The position numbers and the translations under genes are program-made. Below are positions 4,981-62,025 of a stretch of 64,000 bases of DNA, piece by piece. Numbering within the stretch: position 1 is the first letter of the stretch; each line of letters begins with the position of its first letter. This DNA comes from Squalus acanthias (Eukaryota), in contig CM059431.1 in the NCBI GenBank assembly GCA_030390025.1, positions 150,228,001 to 150,292,000 on the forward strand, given 5' to 3'. The notes below the pieces were generated by a model. That model was not told the DNA's origin and did no database searches. It saw only the letters and a program-made list of their open reading frames with translations.

Positions 4981-5018
4981 GTGGTTTATATAATTAAAAA
5001 TTGTTAATAAATACTTAC

Positions 5019-24038: not shown

Positions 24039-25040
24039 GTTCCACTTGTCCTCACCTTTCACCCCACCAGCCTTTACATTCAACGGATCATCCTCCGCCA
24101 TTTCCGCCACGTTCAACGTGATCCCACCACCAAACGTATCTTCCCCTCACCTCCCCTTTCAGCATTCCGTAGGGACCGTTCCCTCCGAGACACCCTAGTC
24201 CACTCCTCTATCACCCCCAGCACCCCTTCCCCTTCACCCGGCGCCTTCCCGTGCAAGCGCAGGAGATGCAAAACCTGCCCTTATACATCCCCCCTTCCCA
24301 CTCTCCAGGGCCCCAAACACCCCTTCCAGGTGAAACAGCGATTTACTTGTACTTCTTGCAATTTAGTATACTGTATTCGCTGCTCACGATGTGGTCTCCT
24401 CTTTATTGCGGAGACCAAACGCAGATTGGGTGACCGCTTAGCGGAACACCTCCGTTCAGTCCACAAGGATGACCCCGAGCTTCCGGTCGCATGTCATTTT
24501 AATTTACCCCTCCACGCTCACTCAGACCTCACCGTCCTCAGCGTAAGCTCCAGGAACAGCACCTCATCTTTCGTTTAAGCACTTTACAGCCATCCGGACT
24601 CATTATCGATTTCAACAATTTCAGATGATAACCCAGGCCCCGACCACATATGTATGCATTTTATCCACTCTTTTGGTCCGTGCCTTTTTCCTTTTTTTTA
24701 TCTCTCGCCCCCAAGGCCGCTGTCTCTGATTCTGCCAGCATTTCACACATAACCTTTTGTTTCTCATCCTGTCCCATTACCATCTAGTCTTGCCTTGAGC
24801 ATCTCTTAATGTCTCTACTTACTATAGACCATCCCTTTTGTTCGTTTATTCCTCCCCCCAGCATCCCCCTTGCATTGTTATCTGTTTATTTCCTGCTCTT
24901 TCAGTTCCGACGAAGGGTTTCGACCGGAAACGTTGACTCTCTTTCTCTCTCCACGGATGTTGTCTGGCCTGCTGAGTTTTTCCAGCGTTTTCTGTTGTTA
25001 TTTCGGATTTCCAGCATCCGCAGTAGTTTGCTATCATAAT
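24039..25040 (+). mobile_element. Penelope-like element family A 3' portion (RT thumb end, GIY-YIG, 3' UTR, hammerhead)
   Basis: VPLVLTFHP...CKRRRCKTC...FTCTSCNLVYCIRCSRCGLLFIAETKRRLGDRLAEH; 8-bp TSD GTGTACAA at 24031-24038 and 25041-25048. Confidence 0.93.
24903..24938 (+). ncRNA. Minimal type-I hammerhead ribozyme motif (family A), core mutated
   Basis: agtt-CCGACGA-stem II-GAAAcgtt-gact; CUGA changed to CCGA. Confidence 0.65.
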
Positions 25041-27536
25041 GTGTACAATTCTCCTTTCTAACCCAATATGAAAAAAGCCCAACAAGGTGGGATTCACTAT
25101 TGGATATAGTGATGGGGAATGAATCAGAGCAGATAAGAGAAGAAAACATAGTGGAACATCGAGGCAATAGTGACCATAACATAACACGTTTTAAGATAAT
25201 AATTGAGAAGGAAATAGGTATGACAAAGACAAGGGTAATAGATTGGAGAACAGCTGACTTTGAGGGACTAAGAATAGAAGTGAGGAAAATAAAATGGACA
25301 ACATTGGCAAACAATGATATAGAACAGCAAGGGGAAACAATAAAAACAGTCTTCAACAGATTCCAGGAAAAATATATTCTGCTAAGAAACAAGAACAAGC
25401 TAAACATTAACGAGACACCGTGGATGAAACAAGGCATAAGGGAAACAATGAGCATTAGGAAAGCGGCATACATTAAGTTCATGGTCAGCAGGGGAGAGTG
25501 ATCAGGGAGAATATGAAGGGATTAGAAGAGGAGTCAAAAAAACAATTAGGAAGGCAACAGGGACTAAGAAATTAAATTATCAAGGAATATAAAACAAAAT
25601 GTAGAAATAATTCAGAGTCATATCATTTAAAAAGGAAGGTCGTGATGGGAATAGAGCCACTAAGCGATGGAGACGATAATACCACAGGCAGCAAAAGTGA
25701 GTAGGCAGAGATATTAAATAATACCTTTGCTTCAGTATTTTCCAGGGAGATAGAAGAGGTGGAGATGGAATCGGATGACGAGATTAGTAATGAGTTCACT
25801 GCATTTAATATAAAATGAAGAGATATACTAAATAATCTAATCAAACTCAAAGAGGATAAAACCCCTGGTGTGGGCGGATTACATCCACGTATTTAAGAGA
25901 ATCTAGGGAAGAGATAGCAGAGGCATTACTACACATACTTAATAATTCGTTAGAAAATGGTGTAGGGCCAGAGGACGAGTGGAGTGCTAACGTAATACTT
26001 TTATCTAAGATGGGAGATATAACATATCCAGGGAACTGTAGACCAATCAGATTAACATCGGGGGTTGGAAAAATAATGGAATCCCTGCTAAAGGTAACAT
26101 TTAAGTACATCTAGAAATGAAAAATATAAGAATGAATAGTCAGCATGGATTTCAAAATGGATAACCTTGCTTGATCAAACGAATGGTATTTATTGAAGAG
26201 TTAACAGAGAGAGTAGACAATGCAAATGCAGTAATGACATCAGAATGGATAGCTACCAGGCTTCAACACTGAAAGCGAAGAATAGGGGTAAAGGGTAGCT
26301 ATTCAGAGTGGCAGAAGGTGGGTAGTGGTGTTCGACAAGGATCAGTGCTGGGACAACTGTTGTTCAAAATTTATATTAATGAATTAGACTTTGGCATCTA
26401 AAACACAATTTCTAAATTTGTGGACGGCACCAAATTGGAAGGGATGGCCAATACTGAGGAGGACTGCAACAAATTACAAGAAGACTTTAATAAACTTGCA
26501 GAATGGGCATTTAATTAGAAAATGAAATTAAACAAAAAAAAGGTGAGGTGTTTCATTTTGGTAAGACAAATAGGGAGGTCACATATTACTTGGGAAATAA
26601 GAAACAACAATGGGGTAGAGGAATAAAGGGATCTAGGAGAACAAATACACAAATCATTGAAATCTATGTTTCCCTCATTGAAATCTATTGGCACAGGTTA
26701 ACAAGGACAAACAAAAAGCAAACCAAACACTAGGGTATATTTCTAGAAAGATAGAATTGTAAAGTAGTGAAGTTATGCTAAACTTGTATTGAACATTGTT
26801 GTGGACTTGATTAGATCACACTTGGATAATTGTGTGCAATTCCGATCGCCACATTATAAAACAGGATATAGAGGCACTGGAGAGGGGGCAGAGTAGATTA
26901 CAAAGAAGATACCAGAAATGCGAGGGAACACCTATCAGGAAAGGATGAAGAGTCTTGGTTTATTTTCTCTTGCAAAGTGAAGGCTGAGTGGTGAACTGAT
27001 AGAGCTCTTTAAAATCATGAAAGTTTTTGAAAGAGTAGATACAGAGAGAGTGATTCCACTTTTGGGGGAGAGCAATCTAGAGGTCATCAATATGAAATAG
27101 TCACCAAAAAATCAAATAGGGAATTCAGAATAGACTTCTTTACCCAGAGAGTGGTGAGAATGTGGAACTCGCTAACACAGGGAGTGGTTTAAGCGAATAG
27201 CATAGATGCATTTAAGGAGCGGTTAGATAAGCATATGAGGGAGAAGGGATTAGAGTGTTATGCTGATAGAATAAGATGAGGAAAGACGGGAGGAGGCTCG
27301 AGAGAAGCATAAACACCGACCTAGACTGGTTGGGTAAAATAGCCTATTTCTGTGCCGTATATGCTATGTAATCCTATGTAATCCTATTTAACCCCTGCAA
27401 TTTCTATACTCCTATAGGCTTTCTGTAGTTGTGAGCTCTCAGTATATGAGAAAAGCTACTCTTATTTATCTTATACTTCCCTCTATGCTCCTTGACATTC
27501 AGTGGGCTCCAGTTTGTTGAGTACCATTCTTTTTGT

Positions 27537-27995
27537 TAGCTGTAGCTCAGTTGGCAGCACAACCGCCTCTGAGTCAAAAGGTTGTGGGTTCTCAGTCCCA
27601 CTCCAGGGACCTGAGCACATAAGCTATGCTGACACTCCAGTACAGTGCTGAGGGAGTGCTGCACTGTCGGAGGTGCCGTCTTCCGGATGAGACGTTAAAT
27701 CGAGGGCCCGTCTGCTCTCTCAGGTGGACGTAAAGTACACCATGGCACCATTTCGAAGAAGAGCAGGTGAGTTATCCCCGGTGACCTGGCCAATATGTTT
27801 CCCTCAAACAACATAACAAAACAGATTATCTGGTCATTATCACATTGCTGTTTCTGAGACCTTGCTGTTTGCAAATTGGCTGCCGTGTTTCCCACATTAC
27901 TACAGTGACTCCACTTCAAAAGTACTTCATTGGCTGAAAAGCGCTTTGAGACGGCCACTGGTCGTAAAAGGCGCTATATAAAAGCAGGTCTTTCC
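27537..27995 (+). mobile_element. Full-length tRNA-headed Deu-domain SINE (SacSINE1/AmnSINE1-related)
   Basis: A box tagctcagttgg, B-box-like ggttctcagtccc, central ttatctggtcattatcacattgctg domain, L2-like tail aaaggcgctatata. Confidence 0.85.
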
Positions 27996-28199
27996 TTTCC
28001 TTTTTTCTTTCTGGGAACATATTTGCTCTGAAGCCTCACTATCTCCTCCTTGAATGCCCCCCATTGTTCTGACACTGATTTACCTTCAAGTAGCTGTTTC
28101 CAGTACACTTTTGCTGAATCACATTTCAGCTAAATAAAAGTGACCTTTCCCTAGTTGAAAGCGTTCACACCTTGTCTATCTGTGTCCTTTTTCATAAAG

Positions 28200-28570
28200 G
28201 AAGATTTAATAAAGATTTCAAAACTTTGATGGGTTTTAAAGGGTGCATTTGTCAGTTTCTTTCCAGTGGCAGAAAGGTGGTTAACCAGAGGTCACAGATC
28301 TAAGATAATAGGCAAAAGACCCAGAGCAGAGATGAGGAGAATTTTCTTTTTGCAGTGAGTTGCTGTGATCTGGAATGCACTGTCTGAGAACGTGGTGGAA
28401 GTTTATTCAATAGTAACTTTCGAAAGGGAATGGGATAATTAGTTGAAGAGGAATTTTTTTCAGTCCTCTGGGTAAACAGTAGGAATAATGAGACAGCTCT
28501 TTCAAACAGATGGCACGGAAACGATTGGCCGAATGGCCCCAATCTGTGCTGTACCATTTTATAATTCTAT
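28200..28570 (+). mobile_element. CR1 3' end fragment
   Basis: 3' UTR ggccgaatggcc and ttctatga tail. Confidence 0.8.
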
Positions 28571-28789
28571 GAGCATGAAACAGGGAGAGAGAAGAGGGAG
28601 AATGAGAGACAGAGAGAAAGAAAAATAGAGACAGAAAGACTGGGAGAGGCACAGCAGGGAAGACATTAACTTTAAAAGGGGAATTGGATAAATACTTGAA
28701 GGGTAACAATTTGCAGGACTATGGGAAAATAACTTGGGAATGGGGCTAATTGTAGGGGTGAGGTCATGGTGGGATTTGATCATAATGAT

Positions 28790-29225
28790 GAGGATATTAA
28801 GATCGAGGCTTTTCCCGCTCGGGAGCAAATGTTGGTCAGCGAGCAAAGGGTTGATGTGTGAACAGGAAATGGTGCGTGTTCGGTTATGGGCAGCAGAGAT
28901 TTGGATGAACTCTAGTTTATGGAGGTAAGCCAGGAGATTATTGGAATATTCCAGTCAGGTTTAAAAAAAGGCATGGGTGAGGGTTTATGCAGTGGAAGGG
29001 CTGAGGTGAGACTGACATGTTCGATATTATGGAAATGGTTTTAGGCAGGACTGGGGAATCAGAGGATACAAGGTCGGAACACAGCTCAAGGTCAAAGAAA
29101 ACGCCGTGTTTGCGAACAGTCTGGTTCATCCTCACACGTTGGCCAGGGAGGGAGATTGAATTGGTAGATTAAAACATGGACTTTGTAACGAGGACTGAAG
29201 ACAATGGCTTTGGTGTTCCCAAGAT
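28790..29225 (-). mobile_element. Old L2 fragment
   Basis: Reverse complement resembles 19080-19500 (KTKAIVF, RNLGVxFDxEL-like motifs). Confidence 0.65.
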
Positions 29226-29395
29226 TTAAATAACAAACACAGCAATACAGTGAGACGTGGTGTATAGATCTAATTGCTGAATGTAGAGACTTCACAGGAA
29301 TACCAACAGCGGCAAAGATGAGAGAGTAACTTACGAGAAAGGTAATACAGTAGGCAAAGGTTTGGAGAGGTAATAGTTGGTTACAGAGACTTACC

Positions 29396-29503
29396 CACAT
29401 TACAACAGTGAATCGACTTCAAAAATAACTTAATTGGCTGTAAAGCACTTTGCGACGTACGGTTGTCGTGAAAGACCCTATACAAATGCAAGTCCTTCTT
29501 TTT
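29396..29503 (+). mobile_element. Deu-SINE 3' tail inserted into a relic splice donor
   Basis: Matches 27891-27995; TTACC duplicated at 29391-29395 and 29504-29508. Confidence 0.8.
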
Positions 29504-29606
29504 TTACCGAATAACAACCGCAGCAAAGGAGGGGAGAGTAAAAGATAAGAACAGTGATCCTGTTAAACAAGGTTTATAGACTTAATAGCAATATAGAGAG
29601 CCTTAC

Positions 29607-29787
29607 CAGGAACACCAACAACAGCAAGGAGGGGATAGTAAAATATTTGAATCGTCTGAAGTGCGTAAAGGATCCGACTTTGTAATGATAGCATATCATA
29701 ATATTCATAAAGAACGTCAAACGCCGAGGAAAAACTCTTGCCCATTGTTGTAACATTCCAATCTACTGTTCTCAGATTCCAATCCAT
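29607..29787 (-). CDS. First coding exon of a GPR139-like class A GPCR (N-terminus and start of TM1)
   Basis: ATG at 29787; MDWNLRTVDWNVTTMGKSFSSAFDVLYEYYDMLSLQSRILYALQTIQIFYYPLLAVVGVP + G|GTAAGG phase-1 donor; NVT sequon; YYPxLxxxGVP/intron layout matches my recollection of GPR139-family exon 1; second exon not found in the window. Confidence 0.75.
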
Positions 29788-29896
29788 TGTTGTAATATTC
29801 CAATCTACTGTTCTTAGATTCCGACTCCTTCTTTGCGAAGCAGCGCGTTGATCCCTGTTAGTACCAGAGGTAATGCCGTCACAGATACTATGGGAT

Positions 29897-30110
29897 AACA
29901 CATTGAAAGGAGTCCCTTATTAATAGAAGAGGGAAACCCTGCACTGAGAGAATTACGGTCCACCGAGACTGACATTAATTACAGTCACTGAGCAAACAGT
30001 TTCAGTTAATCAGTGGAGACTGACATTAATTAAAATCACTGAAAAAACAGCTTCTGTTAACCCCTTTCAATCCAGCACGTTTTCTACCATAGTAAATTAG
30101 CACTTTTCCG
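29897..30110 (-). promoter_or_regulatory. Putative promoter of the GPR139-like gene: TATA-like TATTAATAAG and a duplicated TAATTA-containing 51-bp module
   Basis: Conserved with 5930-6085; gagactgacattaatta...cactga..aaacag present twice (~29965 and ~30016). Confidence 0.5.
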
Positions 30111-30124
30111 CGGTCCAGCTGGAA

Positions 30125-32752
30125 TGTACGAGGGTTGCTGAGGGAAGGAATGGTGGAAATAGCGCAGGATCTGGCCAGAATCTTTCAACGCTCCTTGGAT
30201 ATGGGAGTGGGGCCAAAGGATTGCATGGTTGCAAATGTTACACCCAGTTTAAAAAAGAAGAGAGGAATGAACAATGTTACTATAGGACAGTCAGGCTAAC
30301 GTCGTTGATGGGGAAAGTTCTAGAGGCCATATTCCCGGATAAAATTATCTGTCACTTGGAAAGAAACATGGTTTAATAAATGACAACCAGCACAGATATG
30401 TTAACAGCAAAGTGTGTCTGACAAACTTGATTAAGTATTTTGATGAAGTAACGTACATGATTGATGAGTTTTGCGTGGTTGACGTTGTGTATATGGACTT
30501 TAAAAATCCATTTAATGAAGTGCCATAAAAAATCTAGATAAGACTAAAGTGGCAGTGGCAGTGGGGATCTAGCTTTGGCAAAGGGACAAAAAACAAAAGT
30601 TAGTGTTGAATGGCTGTTGCTCAGGCTGGAGGGAAGTAGACAATGGTGTCCCAAAGGGTTCCCTATTTGAAACATTTATCTTTTTGATAAATATTAATGA
30701 TATAGACTATATATATATGTAAAGGGCATAATTTGTTCGTATGCAGATGAACCAAAACTGGGAAATGTAGTAAACACTGAGTGGGATAGTAGCAGGCTTC
30801 AGGAGACAGAGACAGACTGGTGAAAATAGAAAAGTGATAAAGGTGTCAGCGACACTGCTGTTAAGTGGTCCTTGCCCACCAATAACCTACTCATCGACGC
30901 TCAGTTTGGTTTCAGACAGGGCCGCCCGGCTCCAGACTACATTACAGCCTTTGTCGAAACATGGACAAAGAGCTGAATTCGAGAGCTGAGGTGAGAGTGA
31001 CTGCCACCATCGTAAAGCTGGAGTCATTGGGAATGAGGGGGTAAACTCTTCATTGGCTGGAGTCATACCTAGCAAGAAGGAAGATGGCTGTGGTTGTTGG
31101 AAGTCAATAGTCTCAGTCGCAGGACATCGCTGCAGGAATTGCTCAATGAAGTCTCCAAGGCCCAACCATCTTCAGCTGCTTCATCAATGACCATCCCTTC
31201 ATCTTAAGGTCAGAAATGGGGATATTCGCTTAAGTTTGCAGTGGTCACTTCCATTCGCAACTCCTCAGAAAATGAAGCAGCCCGTGTCCGCATTCAACAA
31301 GACCTGGTCGAATTTCAGGTTTTTGCTGATTAGTGGCAAGTAACACTCGCACCACAAAGTGCCAGGCAATGACGATCTCTAACAAGAGCCAGCTGCCCGT
31401 GACATTCCATGGCATTACCACCGCCAAATCCCCTGCATCAATATCCTGAGGGTCAGCATTCAACAGAAACTTAACTGGACCAGGACCAGCCACATAAAAA
31501 TTGTGGCTACAAAATCAGGTCAGAGCCTGGGTATTCTGCTACGATTGCCTCACATCCTGACATCCCAAAGCATTTCCACCATCTACAAGGCACAAGTCAG
31601 ATGTGTTATGGAATAGATTCCACTTGCCTGGATGAGTACAGCCCCAACAACACTCAAGATACTCGACGTCACCCAGTACAAAGCAGCCTGTTTGATTGGC
31701 ACCAAAACCAGGACCTTAAACATTCACTCCCTCCACCACCGGCGCACCGTGGATGCAGTGTGTACCATCTACAAGATGCATTGCAGCAACTGGCCAAGGC
31801 TTCTTCGACAGCACCTCCCAAACCAACGAACTCTACCATCTAGACGGAGAAGGGCAGCAGGCGCAAGGAAACGTATCCAACTCCAAGTTCCCTTCCAAGT
31901 CAGACAGCTTCCTGGTTTGGAAGTACATCGTTGTTCCTTCATCGTCGTTGGGTCAAAATCCTGCAACTCCCTTCGTAACAGCACTGTGGGAGAACATTCA
32001 ACTCACGAGCTGCAGCGGTTCCAGAAGGTGGCAAATCCACCTTCTCAAGGGGAATTAGGGACGTGCCTTAATTGCTGACCGTGTCAGCCATGGCCACATC
32101 AGATGTATTAATAAACATGAAAACAAGTCTAATGAAATTGAATGCATAGAAATGTGAACGATAAATCTGGGAGGAAAATGAATAGGGAAAATATAAACTT
32201 AACTGTACAATTTTAAGCCCCGGCTGGAGTATTGTGTCCAATTCTTGGCTGCACACTTTAGGAAACATGTCAAGGTGTTGGAGTGGGTACAGAGGAGATT
32301 TACCAGAATGATACCAAGGATGAAGGACTTAATTTATGCTGAGTGACAAGAGAAGCTGGAATTGTTCTCCAGAGAGCACGCAATATAAAAAGGAGATATA
32401 CTGGAGTTGTTCAAAATTATGACGGGTTTTATAGAATAAATAGGGAGAAAAGATCTGGTCGGTAACCAGAAGAAAAATATATAAGATAATCCGGAAAAGA
32501 ACCAGAGGGATGATGAGGAGAATCTTTTCTAAGAAGCGAGTTGTTATGATCTGGTATGCACTGCCTTAAAAGGTAATAGATGCAGGTTCAATAATGACTT
32601 TCAAAAGGGAACGGGATCAATTATGGAAGTGAGGGATTTGCAGGACTATGGGAAAAAAACAGGGGAAGGTAACTAATTGAATAGCTCTTTCAAAGAGCTG
32701 GCACAGGTTCGATGGAATGAATGGACTCCTTCTGTGCTGTATGATTCTATGT
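30125..32752 (+). mobile_element. Decayed CR1 (30125-30830, 32130-32752) interrupted by a second CR1/L2-group LINE 3' fragment (~30860-32120)
   Basis: RT remnants; ORF 31632-32078 (APTTLKILD...HSLHHRRTV...CTIYKMHCS) typical of a LINE C-terminus. Confidence 0.8.
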
Positions 32753-33197
32753 AATTTGTTTAGCGGAGCATGTCGCCCCGCTCTGATCACAGGCCTTGCC
32801 TGGTTTCAATCAGTGAATTAAAAATCAATGATTATATTCCTATTACATTATTTATATCTATTTGTTCTCAGGATTTCGTGTCTAGAGGTAACCAAGACAT
32901 GTATGAGGATTTCAGCAGAAGATGAGCTCAGGCAGGGGCGGAGACGGCCGATGTTAAGGAAGTAGAAATCAAGATGGAGTCTGACCGTGACGTCTCCGAG
33001 GTTCAATAGCAATACGCAGCACTGACCCGTGAAGGAACTGCCGAGTAAACCGGACCCCAGCGATAGACAGAACCTTACAGGCTGAACAGAAGGAGTTTTG
33101 TACTAACAGGAATGACGAACACAACTACATTCTCAGATTAATGCTCAGTACTGTGAGGCATGGGTAATGACAACCATCTTAGTTTGAACTGCTCCCC

Positions 33198-35195: not shown

Positions 35196-35204
35196 CGAAT
35201 CTCG

Positions 35205-36121: not shown

Positions 36122-37570
36122 CTCTCTCTCTCAGTCTCGGTCTCACTCTCTCTCAGTCTCGGTCTCACTCTCTCAGTCTCGGCCTCACTCTCAGTATCGG
36201 TCTCACTCTCTCTTAGTCTCGGTCTCACTCTCTCAGTCTCGGTCTCACTCTCAGTATCGGTCTCACTCTCTCTCAGTCTCGGTCTCACTCTCTCAGTCTC
36301 GGTCTCACTCTCTCTCAGTATCGGTCTCACTCTCTCTCAGTCTCGGTCTCACTCTCTCCCAGTCTCGGTCTCACTCTCTCTCAGTCTCGAACTCTCTCTC
36401 TCAGTCTCGTTCTCACTCTCTCTCAGTATCGGTCTTCACCTGACGAAGGAGCAGCGCTCCGAAAGCTTGTGGATTCAAATAACGCTGTTGGAATATAACC
36501 AGGTGCTGAGCGACTTCTCACATTTGCCCACCCCAGTCCAACACCGGCATCTCCACATTTTCTCTCTCTTCTCAGTCTCGGTCTCACTCTCTCTCAGTCT
36601 CGGTCTCACTCTCTCTCAGTCTCTGTCACTCTCTCAGTCTCGGTCTCACTCTCTCTCAGTCTCGGTCTCACTCTCTCTCAGTTTCGGTCTCACTCTCTCA
36701 CAGTCTCGGTATCACTCTCTCTCAGTCTCGGTCTCACTCTCTCTCAGTCTCGGTCTCACTCTCTCTCAGTCTCGGTCTCACTCTCTCTCAGTCTCGGTCT
36801 CACTCTCTCTCAGTCTCTGTCACTCTCTCAGTCTCGGTCTCACTCTCTCTCAGTCTCGGTCTCACTCTCTCTCAGTCTCTGTCACTCTCTCAGTCTCGGT
36901 CTCACTCTCTCTCAGTCTCGGTCTCACTCTCTCTCAGTCTCGGTCTCACTCTCTCTCAGTCTCTGTCACTCTCTCAGTTTCGGTCTCACTCTCTCTCAGT
37001 CTCGGTCTCACTCTCTCTCAGTCTCTGTCACTCTCTCAGTTTCGGTCTCACTCTCTCTCAGTCTCGGTCTCATTCTCTCTCAGTCTCGGTCTCACTCTCT
37101 CTCAGTCTCGGTCTCACTCTCTCTCAGTCTTGGTCTCGCTCTCTCAGTCTCGGTCTTACACTCTCAGTCTCGGTTTCACACTCTCTCAGTCTCGGTCTCA
37201 CTCTCTCTCCGCCTCGGTCTCACTCTCTCCAAGTCTCCTTCTCACTCTCTCTGTCTCGCGCTCTGTCTCTCAGTCTCGGTCTCACACTCTCTCAGTCTCT
37301 GTCTCACACTCTCTCAGTCTCGGTCTCACTCTCTCTCAGTCTCGGTCTCCCTCTCTCTCAGTCTCGGTATCACTCTCTCACAGTCTCAGTCTCATTCTCT
37401 CTCAGTTTCGGTCTCACTCTCTCTCAGTCTCGGTCTCACTCTCTCTCAGTCCCGATCTCACTCTCTCTCAGTCTCTGTCTCACTCTCTCAGTCTCGGTCT
37501 CACTCTCTCTCAGTTTCTATCTCAATCTCTCTCAGTTTCTGCCACATTCTCTCTCAGTCTCTATCTCACA
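36122..37570. repeat. 22-bp pyrimidine-rich minisatellite (tctctctcagtctcggtctcac)n
   Basis: Period 22 (20-24 variants) read directly. Confidence 0.97.
36436..36472 (+). ncRNA. Minimal type-I hammerhead ribozyme motif (family B) in a ~125-bp Penelope terminal fragment (36435-36558)
   Basis: tcac-CTGACGA-a-ggagc/gctcc stem II-GAAAgctt-gtgg; intact core. Confidence 0.8.
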
Positions 37571-37671
37571 CACTTAGGGAGGAGAGAGAGAATCTGGGGA
37601 GAGAGAGAGAGACAGTTAGAGACAGAGAGCGACTGGGGGAGAGAGAGACTGGGAGACAGAGAGAATATAAC

Positions 37672-46925: not shown

Positions 46926-46965
<40 letters not shown>

Positions 46966-49650: not shown

Positions 49651-49789
49651 CTCTGCTGGTGTCTTTCTGTTTCACAGTGCTCAGTCTCACCTTTCTCTAT
49701 CTCCATCTGCTGGTGTCTCATTGTATCACAGTAATCAGTTTCACGTTTATTTGTCTCCCTCTGCTGGTGTCTCTCTGTATCACACAAAA

Positions 49790-50262
49790 AATGAGAAGTC
49801 GCACAACACCTGGTTATAGTCCAACAGATTTATTTAAAATTACAAGCTTTCGGAGCTGTTGCCCCTTCGTCAGGTAAAGGTACAATGAGGGAATCTACAG
49901 TATTACACAGTATATAAACACAGAAAACAATTTGTCTGCAGAGATACAATCTTTCAGGGAGGCATTACATCAAAGACACAACAGAGCACAGCCAAGACAA
50001 TGAGATGGGTCACAGGGGGTCCAACGTGTCAAATCCTGCCGTCTGCAGTTGACCTTTTAACCTTTTTTTTGTTTTTTTGTTGTGTTTTTTTTTAAACTGG
50101 GTAGACAGACAACGATGTCGAGTCACGTTCTGTAGCGTGACACAAACCCAATATCCCTATTGAGGCCGTCCTCATGGGTGCGGAACTTGGCTATCAGTTT
50201 CTGCACGATGATTTTGCGTTGTCGTGTGTCTCGAAGGCCGCCTTGGGGAACGCTAACCCGCT
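49790..50262 (-). mobile_element. Penelope-like element family B 3' end (GIY-YIG C-terminus, 3' UTR, hammerhead)
   Basis: Minus strand translates QGGLRDTRQRKIIVQKLIAKFRTHEDGLNRDIGFVSRY; terminal sequence matches 58581-58670. Confidence 0.85.
49840..49877 (-). ncRNA. Minimal type-I hammerhead ribozyme motif (family B)
   Basis: ttac-CTGACGA-a-ggggc/gctcc-GAAAgctt-gtaa; stem I covaries relative to tcac/gtga. Confidence 0.8.
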
Positions 50263-50530
50263 ATCTCCGCATCATGTATCACAGCACTCAGTCTCACCTT
50301 TATCTATCTCCCTCTGCTGGGGTCTCTCTGTATCACAGTGCCCAGTCTCACCTTTATCTATTTCCCTCTGATGGTGTCTCTCTGTATCATTGCTCACTCA
50401 GCTGCATACCTCTCCCTGCCCCCCTCTGCTGGTGACTCTCTATATTATTGCTCCCTCTACACTGTCCCATAAAATGCACCCAGGGCAGGCATAGCACGGG
50501 TTAGATTCAGGGTAAGGCTCCATCAACAGT

Positions 50531-52221: not shown

Positions 52222-52834
52222 TCAGTTGTGTACTCGCTGTTGTGTTAGCTGGCTGGATGTAGAAATTAACCCCTTCCCACACTCAAAGTAGGTGAACGGC
52301 CTCTCCCCAGTGTGAACTCGCTAGTGTCTCAGCAAGGTGGATGACTGAGTGAATCGCTTTCCGCACACAGAGAAGGTGAACGGCCTCTCCAGTGTGAACC
52401 CGCTGGTGTGTCAGCAGTGTGGGTGACTGAGTGAATCCCTTCCCACACACGGAGCAGCTGAACGGCCGCTCACCAGCGTGAACCCGCTGGTGTGTCAGGA
52501 GGGTGGGTGACGCAGTTTTTCCATTCCCACACACGGAGCAGGTGAACGGCCTCTCCCCAGTGTGAACTCGCTGCTGTGTCAGCAGGGTGGATGACTGAGT
52601 GAATCCATTCCGACAAACGGAGCAGGTGAACGGCCTCTCCCCAGTGTGACTGAGCTTGTGTCTCGACAGGTCAGTGGGTCGGCTGAATCCTCGTCCACTC
52701 ACAGAACGGTGCTTTTTGCTTCCATATTCAAAGGCTGCTGATATTCAGGACCCGTTGAATCGATTGACTCTGTCAGATCTTGACCTGATGTTTACGTTGA
52801 GCTTCCTTAGTGCAAATCTTCCTCCTCGAACACC
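52222..52834 (-). pseudogene. C2H2 Kruppel-type zinc-finger gene terminal exon, pseudogenised (six finger units)
   Basis: TGERPF linkers, CSVCG...H-RVH fingers; acceptor ttttacag at 52835-52842; AATAAA at ~52071-52076; deletion giving MEAKSTVL*; frameshift near 52390; in-frame TAG at ~52321; Cys/His substitutions. Confidence 0.88.
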
Positions 52835-53124
52835 CTGTAAAATTAATTTAAAACAGGAAAAAGGGAGCGTGAGAGTGAGCCCACAGAAGGCCAAGGGCAT
52901 GTTGTGAAATTGAGCTTAATGAGTCTGGATATGTGTGGGGTCGACACGAGTAAAAAATGACCATGAAAGCTGCCGATTGTCATAAAACCCAACTGGTTCA
53001 CTAATGTCCTTCAGGGAAGGGAACCCGTCAACCGGTCAGGGCCACACATGACTCTGGCCTCTATGGGAGCAGAGTCAGAGAGGTGGGACGGGGCGAAGTC
53101 GAGGGATATTGTACATGTGCAACT

Positions 53125-53450
53125 TCACCAGAAATTTGACAGCACCTCCCAAACCAGCGACCTCCAATACCTAGAAGGACAATGGCAGCAGGTGCATGGG
53201 AACACATTCACATTGATGCTCCCGTCCAAGTCACACACCTTCCTGACTTAGAAGTATATCGCTGTTCCTTCAACGTCGCTGGGTCAAAATCCTGGAACTC
53301 CCTCCCTAACATCACTGTGGGAGCACCTACACCACACGGACTGCAGCGGTTCACGAAGGTGGCACACCAGCACCTTCTTAAGGGCAATTATGGATGGGCA
53401 ATAAAGGCTGGCATTGTCAGCGATGCCCACAACCCAATAATTAATTTAAA
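53125..53450 (+). mobile_element. LINE 3' end, same family as ~30860-32120
   Basis: Matches 31800-32110 (gacagcacctcccaaacc...ggtcaaaatcctggaactccc). Confidence 0.8.
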
Positions 53451-55025
53451 AATCTGGACATGTAAAATGGATTATAAGCCTCTACAGAAATACTTGTTAC
53501 TAAAACAATAACCTCTTACATTGTACGGACAGTGTCTGTTTAACAAACTAATATCCCCAAGAATCTACCTCCTTTGCAACTCTCACATTGGAAATTGTTG
53601 GGCCCCATTGGGCTCAAAGGTACCCGGCGTTAAAACCAGCAGCTTCTCAACCATCTCCATTCCAGCTCAAACTGATGCAACAAAAAAGGACCTTCACGGA
53701 GGCGAGGGACCAACTTCTGCATCCAACGCCCACCCTGGTGCAAACCGGCACTTAATTGGTCCGCCTGTGATTCCAGACTCGGTTCTGCGAGCGACGCCTG
53801 CAATAAAACCAAAGCAAAATACTGCAGAGGCTGGAAACCTGAAATAAAGAGAGAAAAGTGCTGCATATGCTGAGCCATTCATGCAGTATCTGTGGGGTGC
53901 GGTGTGCGGGCGGGGGCGAGGGGAGGTGTCAGAGAGAGAAACAGAGTTAACGGCCTGAATTGTAATGCTTTGGTTGGTTGGGGGCAAGGGGGGAGAGTCG
54001 CTGGTACAACGGGCGGGAAACCCGGGAGAACGGGTTTCACACAGGCCCTGCCTCATTTAACGTCACCTGTGTTTCTTTTTGCCAATCTCCTTATATCTGG
54101 GTCCTCCGGTTACAGACCCTTCTGCCAGTGGAAGCAGTTTCTGCTTGTTTACTAATCTATTAAATTTCCTCTTAAACTTCTCTGCTCCAAGGAGTACTAC
54201 CCCAGCTTAATAACATAAGAAATAAGAGGAAGTGTAGACCATACGTCCCCTCGAGCCTGCTCCGCCATGCAATAAGCTGCTTCAGTTTATCCACACAACC
54301 AAAGTCTCCCATCCCTGGTACCATTCTAGTAAATCTGCTCCGCACCCTCTCTAAGGCCTTGACATCCTTCCTAAAGGGTGGCGCACAGAATTGTACACAA
54401 TTCTCAGCTGAGGATTAACCAGTGTTTTATAAAGGTTTAGGAAGGCAAAATAACAAATAATGCTATTTATGTGATGGGGTTAGAAGGGCGAGGTTAATCC
54501 AGTCAGCTGGATGTGTGAAAGAGACCGTGAGCTGAAAGAGCTCACTTGGAGTGGAGAGCATCGATCACGCAGTGTAACCCGGCGCAAACACTCCTGCACA
54601 GCCCCAGATATTACTTGTTTCGCACTTGGCACAGAAACGTATATTAAATGGTTTAGTTTATGATTGAATCATACTTCTCGAATTGTACTTCCCAACTCAG
54701 ATTCAAGGCCTCATTTATTTTCTTCTTCTGAGCCCCTGAACCTCATCTGGCAGCGTAATGTTGGCGAGTGGTGATCGATTGCCCTGGAACCAACAGGAAG
54801 AGACCTCAGAGGCCGGAAGGTCAAGGGAACAGTGTTTTCTGCAACCAATCGCGGTGCTTGAGTCGGACAGTCAGGTGAGTCAGTGTGAACCCTTGTTAAA
54901 ACAATTTATCGTTTAAAGGTTAAATCGAGATTTCGTTTGTCAAGGAAACAGTTTAACATTTGTTTGTGTTGTGTTTTCCTGGATTTCATATTATGAGTTT
55001 CAGTCACTTCAGTGCCAAGTGGACC

Positions 55026-55906
55026 ATAGAATCATAGAATGGTTACAGCACAGAAGGAGGCCATTCGGCCCGTCGATCCCGTGACGGCTCTTTGCAAGAG
55101 CACTTCAGCTAGTCCCACTCCCCGCCCTTTCCTCTAGTCCAGCATTTGTTTTCCTTCAGGTGCTTATCCAAATCCCATTTGAAGCCACGATTGAGTCTGC
55201 CTCCAAAACCCTTTCAGGCAGTGCATTAAAGATATTAACCACTCGCTGCATAAAAATATTTTTCTTCATGTCGCCGATGGTTCTTTTGCCAATCACCTTA
55301 AATCTGTGTCCCTCTGGCTCTCGATATCCGCAAAGGGAACAGGTTCTCTCTATCTACTCTCTCCAGACACCTCATGATTTTGAAAACATCTAACAAATCT
55401 CCTCTCAAGCTTCTCTGTTCTAAGGAAAAATAACCCCAGCTTATCTAGTCTATCCATGTAACTGAAGTCCCTCATTCCCTGGAACCATTCTCGTAAATCT
55501 TTTCTGCACCCTCGCTGAGGCCTCATCATCCTTCTTAAAGTGTGGTGTCCAGAATTGGACACAATACTCCAATTGAGGCCGAACCAGTGCTATGCCTCTA
55601 TTTATGAAGCCCAGGATCCCATATGTGTTTTTTTTTTACCGCATTCGCAACCTGCCCTGCCACATTCAACGATTTGTGCACATATATTTCGTATTCATGC
55701 TGGCACTGTTTCCTTTATTCCCCTGGCTTCACCTTCGCTGGCAATTCTATTACGTGGCATTATATCAAACGCCTTTTGGAAATCCATATACACCATATCA
55801 ACCGCATTGTCCTTATCAACCCTCTGTGTTACCTCATCAAAAAACTCAATCAAGTAGTTAAACACGAATTCCCTTAACAAATCAGTGCTGGGTTTCATTC
55901 ATTAAT
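55026..55906 (-). mobile_element. CR1 3' fragment running into the gap
   Basis: (catagaat)n tail; LIEFFDEVT...VYMDFQKAFD. Confidence 0.88.
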
Positions 55907-56106
55907 NNNNNNNNNNNNNNNNNNNNNNNNNNNNNNNNNNNNNNNNNNNNNNNNNNNNNNNNNNNNNNNNNNNNNNNNNNNNNNNNNNNNNNNNNNNNNN
56001 NNNNNNNNNNNNNNNNNNNNNNNNNNNNNNNNNNNNNNNNNNNNNNNNNNNNNNNNNNNNNNNNNNNNNNNNNNNNNNNNNNNNNNNNNNNNNNNNNNNN
56101 NNNNNN
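55907..56106. other. Assembly gap (200 N)
   Basis: Run of N; true size unknown. Confidence 1.
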
Positions 56107-56788
56107 GGAGCGCTGCACTGTCGGAGGGGCAGTACTGAGGGGGCGCTGCACTGTCGGAGAGGCAGTACTGAGGGAGCGCTGCGCTGTCGGAGGGGCAGTA
56201 CTGAGGGAGCGCTGCGCTGTCGGAGGGGCAGTACTGAGGGAGCGCTGCACTGTCGGAGAGGCAGTACTGAGGGAGCGCTGCGCTGTCGGAGGGGCAGTAC
56301 TGAGGGAGCGCTGCACTGTCGGAGGGGCAGTACTGAGGGAGCGCTGCACTGTCGAGAGGGCAGTACTGAGGGAGCGCTGCACTGTCGGAGGGGCAGTACT
56401 GAGGGAGCGCTGCACTGTCGGAGGGGCAGTACTGAGGGAGCGCTGCACTGTCGGAGCTGCCATCTTTCGGATGGTATGTTAAACCAAGGCCCCGTCTGCG
56501 CTCTCAGGTGGATGTAAAAGATCCCACGGCCCCTATTGGAAGAAGAGCAGGGAAGTTCTTCCCCGGTGTCCTTGGGCCAATATTTATCCCTCAATCAACA
56601 TCACTAAAACAGATTATCTGATCATTGTCACATTGCTGTTTTGGGAGCTTGCTGTGCGCAAATTGGCTGCCGCATTTCCTACATTACAACAGTGACTACA
56701 CTTCAGAAAAAGTACTTCATTGGCTGTAAAGCACTTTGGGATGCCCTGCATTCGGGCCAGGCATTGTAAAAATGCAGGGTCTTTCTTT
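56107..56788 (+). mobile_element. Deu-domain SINE whose 5' part is a homogeneous 33-bp minisatellite (56107-56455)
   Basis: About 10 near-identical units, then sequence colinear with 27672-27995. Confidence 0.9.
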
Positions 56789-57540
56789 TGATGTCGTATT
56801 CAGTGCACAGCGCTCGGACCAGAGTTATACTGCCGCCCAGTACTGCTGTCCATTTTTATTTTGAAATGATGGGGAATGCAGATTGCTGGCGCACTGCGAG
56901 CGTGTGGGGCTGTTACACAGGCATTTCGCCGCAGGGTCCTGCACAGTACCCGAGCTGCAGCAGAGCAGGGTTATACTGTCACCTGCGCACCGCCAGTCAG
57001 ACGCGAGGCTCGGCAACTCGTGGCTCCTGCCTTCGGGCGCCGCAGAGCCACGTCACCCGTCCGGTTATGGAGTTACACTGTCGCCTGGTTTAGTGGTTGT
57101 CAAACTCCTGACTGATGGGCGATTCACTCCCACCCCATTTTAGACACGGTAGAGTTATACTCTCGCCTGCGCGCTGCGACGGGGGTCCCACCATCGAGCC
57201 TGATGGGGAAGCAATACGATGGAGGCAGCGTATGTATCTAACCCGTGCTGTACCTGCCCTGAGTGTGTTGAATTGGACAGTGTAGAGGGAGCTTTACTCT
57301 GTATCTAACCCGTGCTGCACCTGCCCTGGGAGTGTTTGATGGGACAGTGTTGAGGGACTTGACTTGCTGCTCCTGGGATCTTTCGGCAGTGGAAATTTCT
57401 TCGGTGGGACGTCCAAACTCGCCCGCTCTCCTCTCCTGGTGCGGGCTGATCCCTCGCTTGGGTGTACCTTATTGATCCCGAGCAGCCGTGACCCTCAGTG
57501 TGTTGTGTATGTTTGACCTTGTGCCTTCTTGACCCCACAG

Positions 57541-57716
57541 CAGACGGGGAGGATGTCCCCCAGCCACTTTGCCCGAGTCTCAGGTTTGGTGGGGAGCCCA
57601 CTGACGGCCATGAACGCCAACCTGCTGCAAAGCAGGCTGGGACAGCTGATGCCGCCTGTCGCCGGTTTCCGGCCTTACTTCAGCCCGGCGACGGCTGGAC
57701 ACCTGCAGAACGTCAG
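57541..57716 (+). CDS. PATL1: Internal coding exon resembling PAT1 homolog 1 (mRNA decapping/P-body factor), proline-rich region
   Basis: Pyrimidine tract + cag acceptor ending at 57540, AG|GTATGG donor; QTGRMSPSHFARVSGLVGSPLTAMNANLLQSRLGQLMPPVAGFRPYFSPATAGHLQNVR resembles recalled vertebrate PATL1 ([46 protein letters not shown]...HLQNLR). Confidence 0.82.
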
Positions 57717-57842
57717 GTATGGGGAGTGCGGGAGCAGTGCCTGGGGGAGGGGACGGGACCTGTGCCCATCTGGCGAGGGTGTGGGTTTGCGCGCCGCTCA
57801 TTCGCTCCCGATCACCGGTGGAATATTTGACGACCACTCCAG

Positions 57843-58330
57843 CCTCGGCTAATCCGCAGCTCGCTCTGCCGGCCGGCCTCCCATCTTCCGCACTCCGTAC
57901 ACTTCGCCTCATCCCGAAACTCTGCTGCCCCATCTCCGAACTTACACCAAGTCCCGTTCGCCCATCACCCCTGTGCTTGCTGACCTGCATTGGCTCCCAG
58001 TTAAGCAACGCCTCGATTTTAAAATTCTCATCCTGCTGTTCAAATCCCTCCATGGCCTTGCCCCCACCCTCCCAATCTCTGTAACTTCCTACAACCCTCC
58101 GAGATCTCTGCGCTCCTCCAATTCTGGCCTTTTGCGCACCCACCCCGATTTCCATCACTCTACCATTGGCGGCCGTGCCTTCACCTGCGGAAGCCCCAAG
58201 CTCTGGAATTCCCTCCCTGACCCCCTCCCCCTCGCGCTCTCCTCCTTTAAGAAGCTCTTTAAAATCTACCTCTTTGACCAAGCTTTTGGTCACCTCTCCT
58301 AACATGTCCTCTTGTGTCTCGGTGTCAAAT
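57843..58330 (+). mobile_element. L2 3' fragment
   Basis: LADLHWLPVKQRLDFKIL...GGRAF...PKLWNSLP. Confidence 0.9.
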
Positions 58331-58515
58331 TACACCTGTGTCAGCCGTGACTCAGTGGGTAGCACTCTCGCCTCTGAGTCAGAAGGTTGTGTGTTCAAGT
58401 TCCACTCCAGAGACTTGAGCACAAAATCCAGGCTGACACTCCCAGTGCCAGTACTGAAGGGCAAATGTGAGAAGTCGCGCAACACCAGGTTATAGTCCAA
58501 CAGTTTTATTTGAAA

Positions 58516-58553
58516 TCACAAGCTTTCGGAGCGGCTGCTCCTTCGTCAGGTGA
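58516..58553 (-). ncRNA. Minimal type-I hammerhead ribozyme motif (family B)
   Basis: tcac-CTGACGA-a-ggagc/gctcc-GAAAgctt-gtga on the minus strand. Confidence 0.82.
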
Positions 58554-58580
58554 AGTGAAGAGATGTCACATCTCTTCACT

Positions 58581-58617
58581 TCACCTGACGAAGGAGCAGC
58601 GCTCCGAAAGCTTGTGA
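58581..58617 (+). ncRNA. Minimal type-I hammerhead ribozyme motif (family B)
   Basis: tcac-CTGACGA-a-ggagc/gctcc-GAAAgctt-gtga. Confidence 0.82.
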
Positions 58618-58732
58618 TTTCAAATAAAGCTGTTGGACTATAACCTGGTGTTGTGCGACTTCTCACATTTGTCCACCCCAGTCCAACACTGGCATCTCCA
58701 CATCATGACTACTGAAGGGAGCGTTGCACTGT

Positions 58733-59643
58733 CGCAGATGACACGAAAATTGGTGGAGTGGTAAATAGCGAGGAGGGAAGCCTCAGGCTACAGGACGATA
58801 TAGACGGATTGATCAAATGGGCAGAACAGTGGCAAATGGAATTTAACCCTGAAAAGTGTGAGGTGATTCATTTTGGGAGGACTAACAAGGCAAGGGAATA
58901 CACAATGAATGGTCGGACCCTAGGAAGGACAGAGGATCAGAGGGACCTTGGCGTGCATGTACATAGATCCCTGAAGGCAGCAGGACAGGTAGATAAGGTG
59001 GTTAAAAAGGCATATGGGATACTTGCCTTCATTAGCCGAGGCATAGAATATAAGAGCAGGGAGGTTATGATGGAGCTGTACAAAACGCTAGTTAGGCCAC
59101 AGCTGGAATACTGTGTGCAGTTCTGGTCGCCACACTATAGGAAGGATGTGATTGCATTGGAGACGGTGCAGAGGAGATTCACCAGGATGTTACCTGGGCT
59201 GCAGCGCTTCAGCTATGAAGAGAGACTGGACAGGCTGGGGTTGTTTTCCTTAGAGCAGAGAAGGCTGAGGGGGGACCTGATTGAGGTGTACAAAATTATG
59301 AGGGGCATAGATAGGGTAGATAGAAAGCAACTTTTCCCCTTCGTAGAGGGGTCAATAACCAGGGGCATAGTTTCAAGGTAAGGGGCAGGAGGTTTAGAGG
59401 GGATTTGAGGAAACATTTTTTCACCCAGAGGGTGGTGGGAATCTGGAACTCACTGCTTGAAAGGGTGGTAGAGGCAGGAACCCTCAACATTAAAGCAGCA
59501 TTTAGATGAGCACTTGAAACGCCATAGCACACAAGGCTATGGACCAAGTGCTGGAAAATGGGATGAGAATAGACAGGGCTTGATGGCCGGCGTGGACACG
59601 ATGGGCTGAAGGGCCTCTTTCTGTGCTGTATAACTCTATGACT
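58733..59643 (+). mobile_element. Young 5'-truncated CR1
   Basis: Uninterrupted 207-aa RT C-terminal ORF (58758-59381); ctctatga tail. Confidence 0.95.
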
Positions 59644-59959
59644 TTTGGCGGGGTCGTCTTTCAGATGTAGTAAAGGGGCCTTCAGGAAGAGTGACCATAA
59701 TATGATAGAATTTTATATTGAGTTTGAAATTGATTTAGTTAAATCCGAAACTAGGGTCTAAAAGCAAGCTATGTAGGTACGAGGGCGAGTTAGCTAAGCT
59801 AGATTGGGAAACTGCATTAAAGGGTATGACGGTAGACAAGTAATGGCTAGCGTTTAAAAAAATTAACACATAATTTACAACAAATATACATTCCTTTAAG
59901 ACACAAAAACCCCACAGGGAAAGTGGTCCAACCGTGGCTAACAAGAGAAGTTAAAGATA

Positions 59960-60093
59960 GTTCTGACGAAGGGTTTCGACCTGAAACGCTAACTCTGTTT
60001 CTCTCTCCACGGATCTTGCCTGGCCTGCTGAGTTTTTCCAGCGTTTTCTGTTGTTACAATTTTCCAGCATCCGCAGTATTTTCTTATCGTATC
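59960..60093 (+). mobile_element. 134-bp Penelope family A terminal insertion beginning at the hammerhead motif (59959-59994)
   Basis: 12-bp TSD AAGTTAAAGATA at 59948-59959 and 60094-60105; CTGACGA...GAAA core, cleavage-site U changed to C. Confidence 0.85.
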
Positions 60094-61390
60094 AAGTTAA
60101 AGATAATGTTAGATCAAAGGAAGAGGCTGAGAATGTTGCCAAAAAGAGGAGTAAGCCTGAGGATTGGGAGGATTTTAGAATTCAACAAAGGAGGACCAAG
60201 AAATTGATAAAGAAAGGGAAAATAGAATATGAGAGTCAACTAGCGACAGACATAAAAACAGATTGTAAAAGCTTCTGTAGGTATGTAAAAAGGAAAAGAC
60301 TAGCGACAGTAAATGTGGATCCCTGACGGGCTGAGACAAGAGAAATTATAATGGGGAATAAGGAAATGGCAGAGAAATTAAACAAATACTTTGTGTCTGT
60401 CTTCAAGGAAGAAGACGCAAAAAAATTCCCAGAAATAGTGAAGAACCAAGGGTCTAGCGAGAATGAGGAACTGAAAGAGATTGAGAACATAAGAAATCAG
60501 AGCAGGAGTCGGCCACACAGCCCCTCGATCCTGCTCCGCCATTCAACAAGATCATGGCTGATCGTCGACCTCAACTCCACTTTCCCGCCCGATCTCCATA
60601 TCCCTTGATTCCCCTAGAGTCCAAAAATCTATCTGTCTCAGCCTTGAATATACTCAACGATTCAGCAATCACAGCCCTCTGGGGCAGAGAATTCCAAAGA
60701 TTCACAACCCTCTGAGTGAAGAAATTCCACCTCATCTCAGTCCTAAATGGTCTACCCGTTATCCTGAGACTATGCCCCCTAGTTCTAGACACTCCAGTCG
60801 GGGAAACAACCTCCCCTTCAGGATCTTGTATGTTTCAATGAGATCACCTCTCATTCTTCTAAACTCCAGAGAGTATCGGCCCATTCTGCACAATTTCTCT
60901 TCATAGGACAGCCCTCTCATCCCAGGAATCAATCTAGTGAACCTTCGTTGCACTGCCTCCAAGGCAAGTATATCCTTCCTTAGATAAAGAGACCAAAACT
61001 GTGCACAGTACTCCAGGTGTGGTCTCACCAAGTGTAAGCTTTTTATTTCGACTGGCATTAAATTGACAGCAAGACCAATTCTTTTGAAACAATTTGGAAT
61101 AAGTTTGTGAAACACACACACACTCATGCACATCAAAACAGTAGTCTACTGGTATCTATTGTCTCTACTCGATTACAACAGGTAAGGTAATGGGTTAGAT
61201 TTAAACAGACTTGTACTTCCCTGAGTCAAGCAAGGCCGTTTTCCTTGCTTCTTGGTCTGGTCTGTCGAGGGAGGGCTTCCTGCTTTTACGCGTGGTCATC
61301 CAGAGAGAGAACGAGAGCCTTTGGGTTCCTTGTTTTATATTTTTTAAGTCCATTGTCTCTCGTCTAAATTGCTAAGACCCCAGGATTGGG

Positions 61391-62025
61391 GTCTCTACAT
61401 TGGGGAGACCAAACGCAGATTGGGTGACCGCTTTGCGGGACACATCCGTTCAGTCCGTAAGTGTGACCCCGAGCTTCCGATCGCCTGTCATTTTAATTCA
61501 CCTCTCCACGCCCACTCGGACCTCACCGTCCTCGGCCTCGTGCATTGTTCCACGGAAGCTCAGCGTAAGCTCCAGGAACAGTACCTCATCTTCCGTTTAG
61601 GCACTTTACAGCCTTCCGGACTCAATATCGAGTTCAACAATTTCAGATCATAACCCCGGCCCCTACCACATATATACACATTTTATCCACCCTTTTGGTC
61701 CGTGCCTTTTTCCTTCTTTTCTCTCTCTCCCCCTACGGCAGCTGTCTCTCATTCTGCCAGCATTTCACACCTCACCTTTTGTTTCTTAACCTGTCCCATT
61801 ACCATCTCGTCTTGCCTTGAGCATCTCTTAATGTCTCTACTTACCATAGACCCCCCCCTTTTGTTCTTTTATTCCTCCCCCCAGCCTCCCCCTTGCATTT
61901 TTATCTGTTTCATTTCCTGCTCTTTTCTCAGTTCTGACGAAGGGTTTCGACCTGAAATGTTAACTCTGTTTCTCTCCACGGATGTTGCCTGGCCTGCTGA
62001 GTTTTTCCAGCGTTTTCTGTTGTTG
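61391..62025 (+). mobile_element. Penelope-like family A 3' end inserted in the LTR
   Basis: LYIGETKRRLGDRFAGH...EQYLIFRLGTLQPSGLN; 13-bp TSD CCCCAGGATTGGG at 61378-61390 and 62026-62038. Confidence 0.92.
61930..61965 (+). ncRNA. Minimal type-I hammerhead ribozyme motif (family A)
   Basis: agtt-CTGACGA-stem II-GAAAtgtt-aact; ACGT palindrome decayed to ATGT. Confidence 0.72.

Follow-up and report, generated by a model that had tools for sequence, protein, structure and literature searches.

A stretch of 64,000 nucleotides from Squalus acanthias (assembly GCA_030390025.1, contig CM059431.1, positions 150,228,001 to 150,292,000 of the forward strand; hereafter the window, in whose own numbering all positions are given) contains dispersed copies of short hammerhead ribozyme motifs. 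We consider it highly probable (about 0.88) that these copies are 5'-truncated 3' ends (pseudo-long terminal repeats, pLTRs), bearing target-site duplications (TSDs), of two families of Neptune-type Penelope-like elements (PLEs), here called A and B, and that each family carries one minimal type I hammerhead.

The motifs were located by scanning both strands for CTGANGA together with a self-BLAST of the window, and were evaluated with a strict descriptor consisting of CUGANGA, a helix II of at least 4 bp, GAAA, the pattern N-N-U-H and a helix I of at least 3 bp, G-U pairs being allowed. Five strict matches were obtained (cores 36440+, 58585+, 58549-, 49873- and 61934+), to which a relaxed descriptor added one (core 59963+). 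None of 400 block-wise dinucleotide shuffles gave a strict match, and three of the 400 gave one relaxed match. Given that copies of the same family are not independent, this test excludes a local accident but does not show ten separate origins. All seven motifs listed in a first-pass annotation made from the sequence alone were recovered at their positions, which correspond to the low ends of helix I (24903, 36436, 49840 (-), 58516 (-), 58581, 59959 and 61930), as were two degraded motifs at about 3790 (-) and 5710 (+).

Family B comprises the following features, with the position of nucleotide 17 (N17) given for each hammerhead.

36434..36558 (+): short copy with tail, inside a TC-rich minisatellite.
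36436-36472 (+): hammerhead, core and AGCT intact, one U-G pair in helix I, N17 = 36468.
49785..50274 (-): insertion of 490 bp with endonuclease end, untranslated region (UTR) and hammerhead, without forward tail.
50260-50126 (-): C-terminal 45 endonuclease codons of 49785..50274, stop at 50125-50123.
49776-49784 and 50275-50283: 9-bp TSD of 49785..50274, in a tandem-repeat setting.
49840..49877 (-): hammerhead variant, core and AGCT intact, G-U pair in helix II, N17 = 49844.
58462..58709 (both strands): fold-back insertion of 248 bp.
58462-58566 (-, without tail) and 58568-58709 (+, with a 38-nt tail): arms of the fold-back, on either side of a 1-nt centre.
58452-58461 and 58710-58719: 10-bp TSD of the fold-back.
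58516..58553 (-): intact hammerhead, 4-nt loop II, N17 = 58520.
58581..58617 (+): intact hammerhead, 3-nt loop II, N17 = 58613.

The proposal that the family B cores are intact holds at the sequence level in all four copies. Each has both conserved boxes, an extra A before helix II, a CUU site, a 4-bp helix I and a 5-bp helix II closed by G10.1-C11.1, and each has the loop-less palindromic helix III, reading AGCT, that the first-pass annotation had described; it is helix I (4-5 bp) that closes the motif, as in type I hammerheads. All 36 stem cells are paired (36/36), with one pair changed on both sides and two changed on one side. The two-sided change belongs to the 49840 variant, in which U-A replaces C-G in helix I at positions 49876/49841. 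The arms of the fold-back differ in 3 of 105 alignment columns, and the 5' junction of 49785..50274 carries about 17 nt resembling the tail end, inverted.

Family A is represented by longer and shorter copies, none of them with a whole motif.

24039..25040 (+): insertion of 1002 bp with CxxC linker, GIY-YIG end, pyrimidine-rich UTR, hammerhead and tail.
24036-24625 (+): GIY-YIG end of 24039..25040, one frameshift near 24540, stop at 24626-24628.
24031-24038 and 25041-25048: 8-bp TSD of 24039..25040.
24903..24938 (+): damaged hammerhead, U4 replaced by C, G10.1-G11.1 mismatch, N17 = 24934.
59960..60093 (+): insertion of 134 bp, beginning 3 nt before the core, with tail.
59948-59959 and 60094-60105: 12-bp TSD of 59960..60093.
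59959..59994 (+): damaged hammerhead, U16.1 replaced by C (ACGC), G10.1-U11.1, N17 = 59990, matched by the relaxed descriptor only.
61391..62025 (+): insertion of 635 bp with GIY-YIG end (61393-61650, stop 61651-61653), UTR and hammerhead, without tail.
61378-61390 and 62026-62038: 13-bp TSD of 61391..62025.
61930..61965 (+): hammerhead with core letters retained and palindrome broken (ATGT), G10.1-U11.1, N17 = 61961.
5066..5812 (+): older copy, GIY-YIG end with stops (5068-5577), shortened UTR, right end approximate.
3692..3813 (-): remnant with degenerate hammerhead and tail.
53813..53952 (-): remnant without a core, with recognisable 3' part and tail and an insertion of about 40 nt.

The last of these, a sixth family A remnant, had been missed in the first-pass annotation. 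Core, palindrome and G10.1-C11.1 occur together in none of the five family A motifs; only one of the five combines a U-H cleavage site with both the CUGANGA and the GAAA box, and helix II is closed by G-U or G-G in place of G10.1-C11.1. The CTGACGA-type box that had been attributed to all of the motifs is absent at 24903, which reads CCGACGA with a G-G mismatch at 10.1/11.1, has one G-U pair in helix I and fails both descriptors. Similarly, the ACGT palindrome ascribed to family A is retained in two of the five motifs, at 24903 and in the remnant near 5710, where the CUGANGA box contains a deletion; at 59959 and 61930, both with G10.1-U11.1, it has become ACGC and ATGT. The G10.1-U11.1 pair, commonest in this family, may reflect CpG decay or a family state. 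Pyrimidine-rich runs (78-82% C/T) at 24862-24906 and 61889-61933 (+) end in CAG within the 5' strand of helix I; this CAG resembles a splice acceptor, and the 134-bp copy begins at its G (59960). An intron of the D. virilis PLE ends at helix I (PMC4209133). Since the whole UTR is pyrimidine-rich, the likeness in family A may be due to chance.

To which elements the motifs belong can be read from the open reading frames (ORFs) that precede them. The family A ORF end (24033-24545) gave 8 protein matches among 612 candidates, all from sharks and rays, and the best five of the 8 share 59-66% identity over 98-99% of the query. Of six homologues scanned, five gave a GIY-YIG score (one above the curated cut-off) and three an RVT_1 score (one above). 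The 45-residue family B end (50126-50260, -) matched 13 of 22 candidates, with 86% identity to P0010, a 643-residue protein with RVT_1, a DKG motif and a CxxC linker, and 77% to P0013, whose GIY-YIG score lies above the cut-off; the family B piece itself has no GIY/YIG motifs and was assigned through these homologues. P0010 and P0001 are 34% identical over 454 columns. A CX2-5CxxC linker occurs in window ORF 23910-24578, in P0001 and in P0010, and DKG was seen in both families where the protein is long enough (P0008 and P0010). A reverse transcriptase (RT) with DKG fused to a C-terminal GIY-YIG domain was encountered through the close homologues P0001, P0008, P0010 and P0013. The linker marks Neptune and Nematis elements (PMC8557442), and Neptune is preferred here because a 2026 preprint found Neptune and Poseidon in vertebrates (bioRxiv 10.64898/2026.07.22.740005). 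The distance from stop codon to hammerhead core is 279-281 nt in family A and 252 nt in family B. ORFs, homologues and distances together bear out the view that there are two distinct PLE families with a type I hammerhead some 250-280 nt behind the endonuclease stop, with the qualification that the physical link to an ORF end, claimed for each family, is present in three of six family A copies and in only one of four family B copies.

Several of the homologous proteins have features of their own. The family B endonuclease end recurs in P0009 (which terminates in it), P0019 and P0020, predicted XRCC5, FAM204A and FAM210B isoforms from two shark species, and this suggests exonised PLE 3' ends or annotation artefacts. 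The last 20 residues of P0004 (Stegostoma, family A) read through the UTR into a frame fitting a hammerhead, which, as deduced from the codons, would have C11.1 and a GUC site.

Nine insertions were examined for their junctions, and exact TSDs of 8, 9, 10, 12 and 13 bp close five of them. These five, 134-1002 bp in length, contain no inserted LINE, and targeting to Tx1 elements does not apply to them, no search aimed at Tx1 having been made. Two of the TSD-closed insertions split LINE (long interspersed nuclear element) remnants whose frame resumes on the far side: 24039..25040 lies within a LINE endonuclease remnant, and a LINE-like host frame resumes across 59960..60093. The 3' ends are found at N17+58/59 or N17+96 in family B and at N17+64 or N17+103/106 in family A, so that each family has a pair of alternative 3' ends separated by about 40 nt, the span of the PLE 'tail'. 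At the other end, all six mapped 5' ends are located 3-868 nt upstream of the core and none of the six at N17, which indicates that the copies derive from uncleaved RNA. This anatomy, with its TSDs, two 3' end points and fold-back, was observed directly, as was the hammerhead secondary structure with its loop-less palindromic helix III. The copies display 5' truncation, an optional 30-40 bp tail, an inverted 5' copy and short TSDs, in agreement with the signature reported for PLEs, namely tails of 30-40 bp that may be absent, truncated copies in inverted orientation and TSDs of 8-10 bp (PMC8557442, PMC3846280). The family B tail ends (58705-58709, +) directly behind an ATG that lies some 90 nt beyond N17 and may open the ORF of the following unit in the parental tandem.

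Further copies of family B were sought in public sequencing runs with the segment 49790-50270. Of 24 runs listed, all of them contig sets, 20 contain this segment in whole or in part; four runs from three coded organisms were examined in detail, and contigs cannot show RNA ends or transcription. In all four, loose ends extend beyond the 49840 copy, on one side into the tail and on the upstream side into the GIY-YIG frame, confirming both the link between family B and its ORF and the optional tail. Variation towards C-G amounts to 15, 73, 55 and 59% of depth at 49841 and to 10, 41, 33 and 13% at 49876, where depth is not copy number and the two positions carry no phase. Because both helix I positions vary in 4/4 runs, the U-A form is common to other copies and not private to the window, as read from a table without phase. 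The 40 of 65 variant rows listed include no core variants, which is no more than a hint. A fall in depth upstream of the core was not used, contig depth not being copy number and UTR divergence being expected to look the same. In run X5, one DNA contig skips 62 nt (49838-49901), removing the entire hammerhead from a family B copy.

Searches of other collections with the motif patterns yielded little. Two matches to the family B pattern in the viral_contigs set (L001 and L002) are attributed to chance, their helix II being mismatched and their flanks unrelated, and the sequence downstream of the family B hammerhead, used as an anchor, had no match in the metagenome_contigs set. The family A pattern gave one match in the latter set, L003, without BLAST similarity to the window or to PLE proteins. 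At its positions 601-634 (-), ahead of an open frame, lies a minimal hammerhead of textbook form with an ACGT palindrome, G10.1-C11.1 and a GUU site, unrelated to the elements described here.

We also assessed how the motifs would be predicted to fold. The minimum-energy fold of all four family B monomers contains helices I and II; of three family A folds tested, one retains helix II and none is complete. The z-scores of the monomer folds range from 0.84 to -1.52, in 7/7 cases no better than shuffles, and folding energy is therefore no evidence either way. Pairs of copies were considered as dimers, with energies from a nearest-neighbour model that ignores the catalytic core. A transcript across the fold-back brings sense and antisense motifs into a hairpin of about 108 bp (-208.7 kcal/mol), and 58516 and 58581 are ruled out as a cis dimer, being on opposite strands of this one long hairpin; same-strand family B copies lie 8.7 and 22 kb apart. 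The strand-swapped family B dimer is predicted at -20.7 kcal/mol, compared with -21.6 for two monomers and -30.5 for the competing duplex. A mixed C-G/U-A dimer reaches -17.5 versus -20.7 kcal/mol, a difference that is not specific evidence since the U-A homodimer stands at -16.9. A heterodimer of 59959 and 61930, which lie on the same strand 1.97 kb apart and could together restore one site, is unlikely at -0.2 kcal/mol and without G10.1-C11.1. As modelled, the local geometry speaks against activity of the family B copies, and no copy of either family in the window appears placed to cleave in cis.

By analogy with published PLE work, the element's RT would take an uncleaved read-through RNA as template, start 60-105 nt behind the hammerhead at either of two sites, run back through the hammerhead and usually stop early, and we propose that such early stops let hammerhead-bearing stubs pile up. 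The ribozyme itself would be maintained in an autonomous parent, where it may cleave slowly after CUU (family B) or GUU (family A), either as a strand-swapped dimer or with the element's protein. The dispersed copies would then be decaying passengers, those of family B being less decayed. In the anole element, hammerhead cleavage requires the protein of the element and can be dispensed with for insertion in vitro, where hammerhead mutants still insert; the tail corresponds to the stretch from one RT start site to the other, and RNA-seq showed no read ends at the cleavage site (PMC11167929). Published minimal hammerheads show no activity as monomers and weak activity as dimers (PMC4209133), and dimer cleavage by Lunse et al. 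is recounted in a review (PMC6765202).

A number of observations weigh against assigning the copies to two Neptune-type PLE families with hammerheads. Rfam gave no match in the window at the gathering score, and none of the 4 matches obtained up to E 10 was to a hammerhead model; the hammerhead call was consequently made from the descriptor and the context and not from a curated model. Covariation among the four family B copies, a check called for by the first-pass annotation, does not exceed that of shuffled alignments, the number of two-sided changes being reached by 126 of 500 shuffles. Four of the nine insertions, the copies at 5710, 3790, 53950 and 36436, have no convincing TSD; their candidate duplications of 5-8 bp are either too short to count or fall within simple repeats. 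Pfam detected GIY-YIG in none of three window ORF fragments (0/3), and the 64-kb window holds no full-length element, so that the clade was assigned from motifs and not from a tree. Moreover, the RT mechanism is borrowed from a lizard element of the Poseidon clade, and the dispersed copies are only presumed to be silent.

An alternative is that the dispersed family B copies, transcribed within host introns or 3' UTRs, still work as ribozymes and cut host transcripts after CUU, either paired in trans with a second copy by way of the AGCU palindrome or aided by a PLE protein. The core letters kept in all four copies, the pairing of every stem cell (36/36), the minimum-energy folds of the four monomers and the isoforms P0009, P0019 and P0020, whose family B ends mean that hammerheads could lie in 3' UTRs, are all compatible with it, as are two runs containing the stretch that were guessed to be RNA, a label that is itself a guess. 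However, young copies would be expected to have intact cores, and the two arms of the fold-back differ in only 3/105 columns; the inverted pair would be hidden in the -208.7 kcal/mol hairpin. The swapped dimer is no better than the monomers and lies far above the duplex (-20.7, -21.6 and -30.5 kcal/mol), the weak dimer activity of published motifs (PMC4209133) and the lack of read ends at the anole site (PMC11167929) point the same way, and we regard this alternative as unlikely. It is, in our estimation, quite improbable that family B is so abundant, and so frequently transcribed within host introns and alternative 3' ends, that solo copies find trans partners or the element's protein and cleave host RNAs after CUU; if it were true, the result would be an RNA-cleavage network in sharks, derived from transposons and spanning the genome. 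Were solo copies to cleave in trans, the C-G and U-A helix I subfamilies would be partly separate pairing classes, because a mixed dimer loses one helix I pair.

A very improbable account is that the short copies form a non-autonomous retrozyme-like or SINE (short interspersed nuclear element)-like family spreading through self-cleaved, circularised monomers. Four copies measure 105-142 bp, three of them begin 3-17 nt before the core, and pLTR-derived tandem retrozymes are reported from vertebrates including one chondrichthyan (bioRxiv 10.64898/2026.07.22.740005); yet none of the 10 motif-bearing pieces of the window forms a head-to-tail hammerhead tandem, the ends are not at N17, and the short copies are collinear with longer ORF-bearing ones, sharing their two 3' stops and TSDs. 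It has also to be considered that a chance look-alike in one ancestral element was multiplied by retrotransposition, in which case the shuffle test overstates significance because family copies are not independent; the missing Rfam match and the non-significant covariation in four copies would fit. Against this, two families with 34% protein identity share one architecture with different stems and palindromes in the same location, 252 versus 279-281 nt behind the stop, the frame of the Stegostoma P0004 C-terminus, as deduced from its codons, fits the same motif, and the published consensus (PMC4209133) predicts the extra nucleotide, G10.1-C11.1 and the palindrome, all present in family B. The probability of a chance origin is next to negligible.

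The assignment to 3' ends of two PLE families is also consistent with known systems. The motifs are of the small self-cutting RNA kind known from PLEs. Minimal hammerheads of metazoan PLEs (Cervera and De la Pena 2014, PMC4209133) share with ours type I topology, the absence of loop III, a palindromic 15.1-16.1 segment, an extra nucleotide between 9 and 10.1, a short helix I and a pLTR location, and they too occur mostly as solo copies from truncated PLEs with some close opposite-strand pairs. In Fig. S3 of that work the turtle row has the AGCU palindrome and U17, and the lamprey row the UCAC/GUGA helix I, both as in family B; the consensus has G10.1-C11.1, whereas family A mostly has G10.1-U11.1. 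The same architecture was published there for lamprey, coelacanth, frog, turtle and snake, and the portion of its Fig. S3 and supplement covered here holds no cartilaginous-fish or shark terms. Neptune and Nematis PLEs (PMC8557442, PMC3846280) have the same DKG RT, C-terminal GIY-YIG and CX2-5CxxC linker, and the same 5' truncation, inverted 5' copy, one-sided 30-40 bp tail, short TSD and minisatellite copy, but only 3' fragments are present in our window. PAc (Poseidon, Anolis carolinensis, PMC11167929) also has a pLTR hammerhead, two 3' end points and copies from uncleaved RNA; it differs in belonging to another clade and in an ORF that starts in helix II, and protein-assisted cleavage has been shown for it. 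Non-LTR retrozymes (bioRxiv 10.64898/2026.07.22.740005, PMC7229834) have the same type I hammerhead, are PLE-related and include one chondrichthyan; they are built of head-to-tail tandem units, in contrast to the solo or inverted copies with TSDs and PLE tails found here. A search of the literature on hammerheads in sharks and cartilaginous fish, with Repbase and Dfam outside its scope, returned no description of these families. They may be so far undescribed, which would be a minor point, but may well be in a catalogue already.

Regarding the surroundings, the family A copy at 5066 adjoins a short frame (4993-5070, -) that shares with the end of ORF 29566-29916 (-) a stretch of 15 residues, 10 of them identical, without a Pfam match; it is reminiscent of the first exon of a shark G protein-coupled receptor family. 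A C2H2 zinc-finger array exon with a frameshifted end is located at 52283-52744 (-), a LINE remnant is present in two nearly identical tandem copies with a 1143-bp period at 513-1600 and 1656-2750, and a 200-base assembly gap (55907-56106) falls within a satellite array.

For studies of dimeric or protein-assisted cleavage, family B provides natural variants with intact cores, but comparable material exists in many other genomes; the importance of the finding would rise greatly only if solo copies were shown to cut host transcripts. The copies described here add cartilaginous-fish examples to a class described in 2014, with a tidy PLE insertion anatomy of TSD, optional tail and fold-back, and are in line with the notion that the 5' end of the reverse-transcribed RNA is not defined by the hammerhead.

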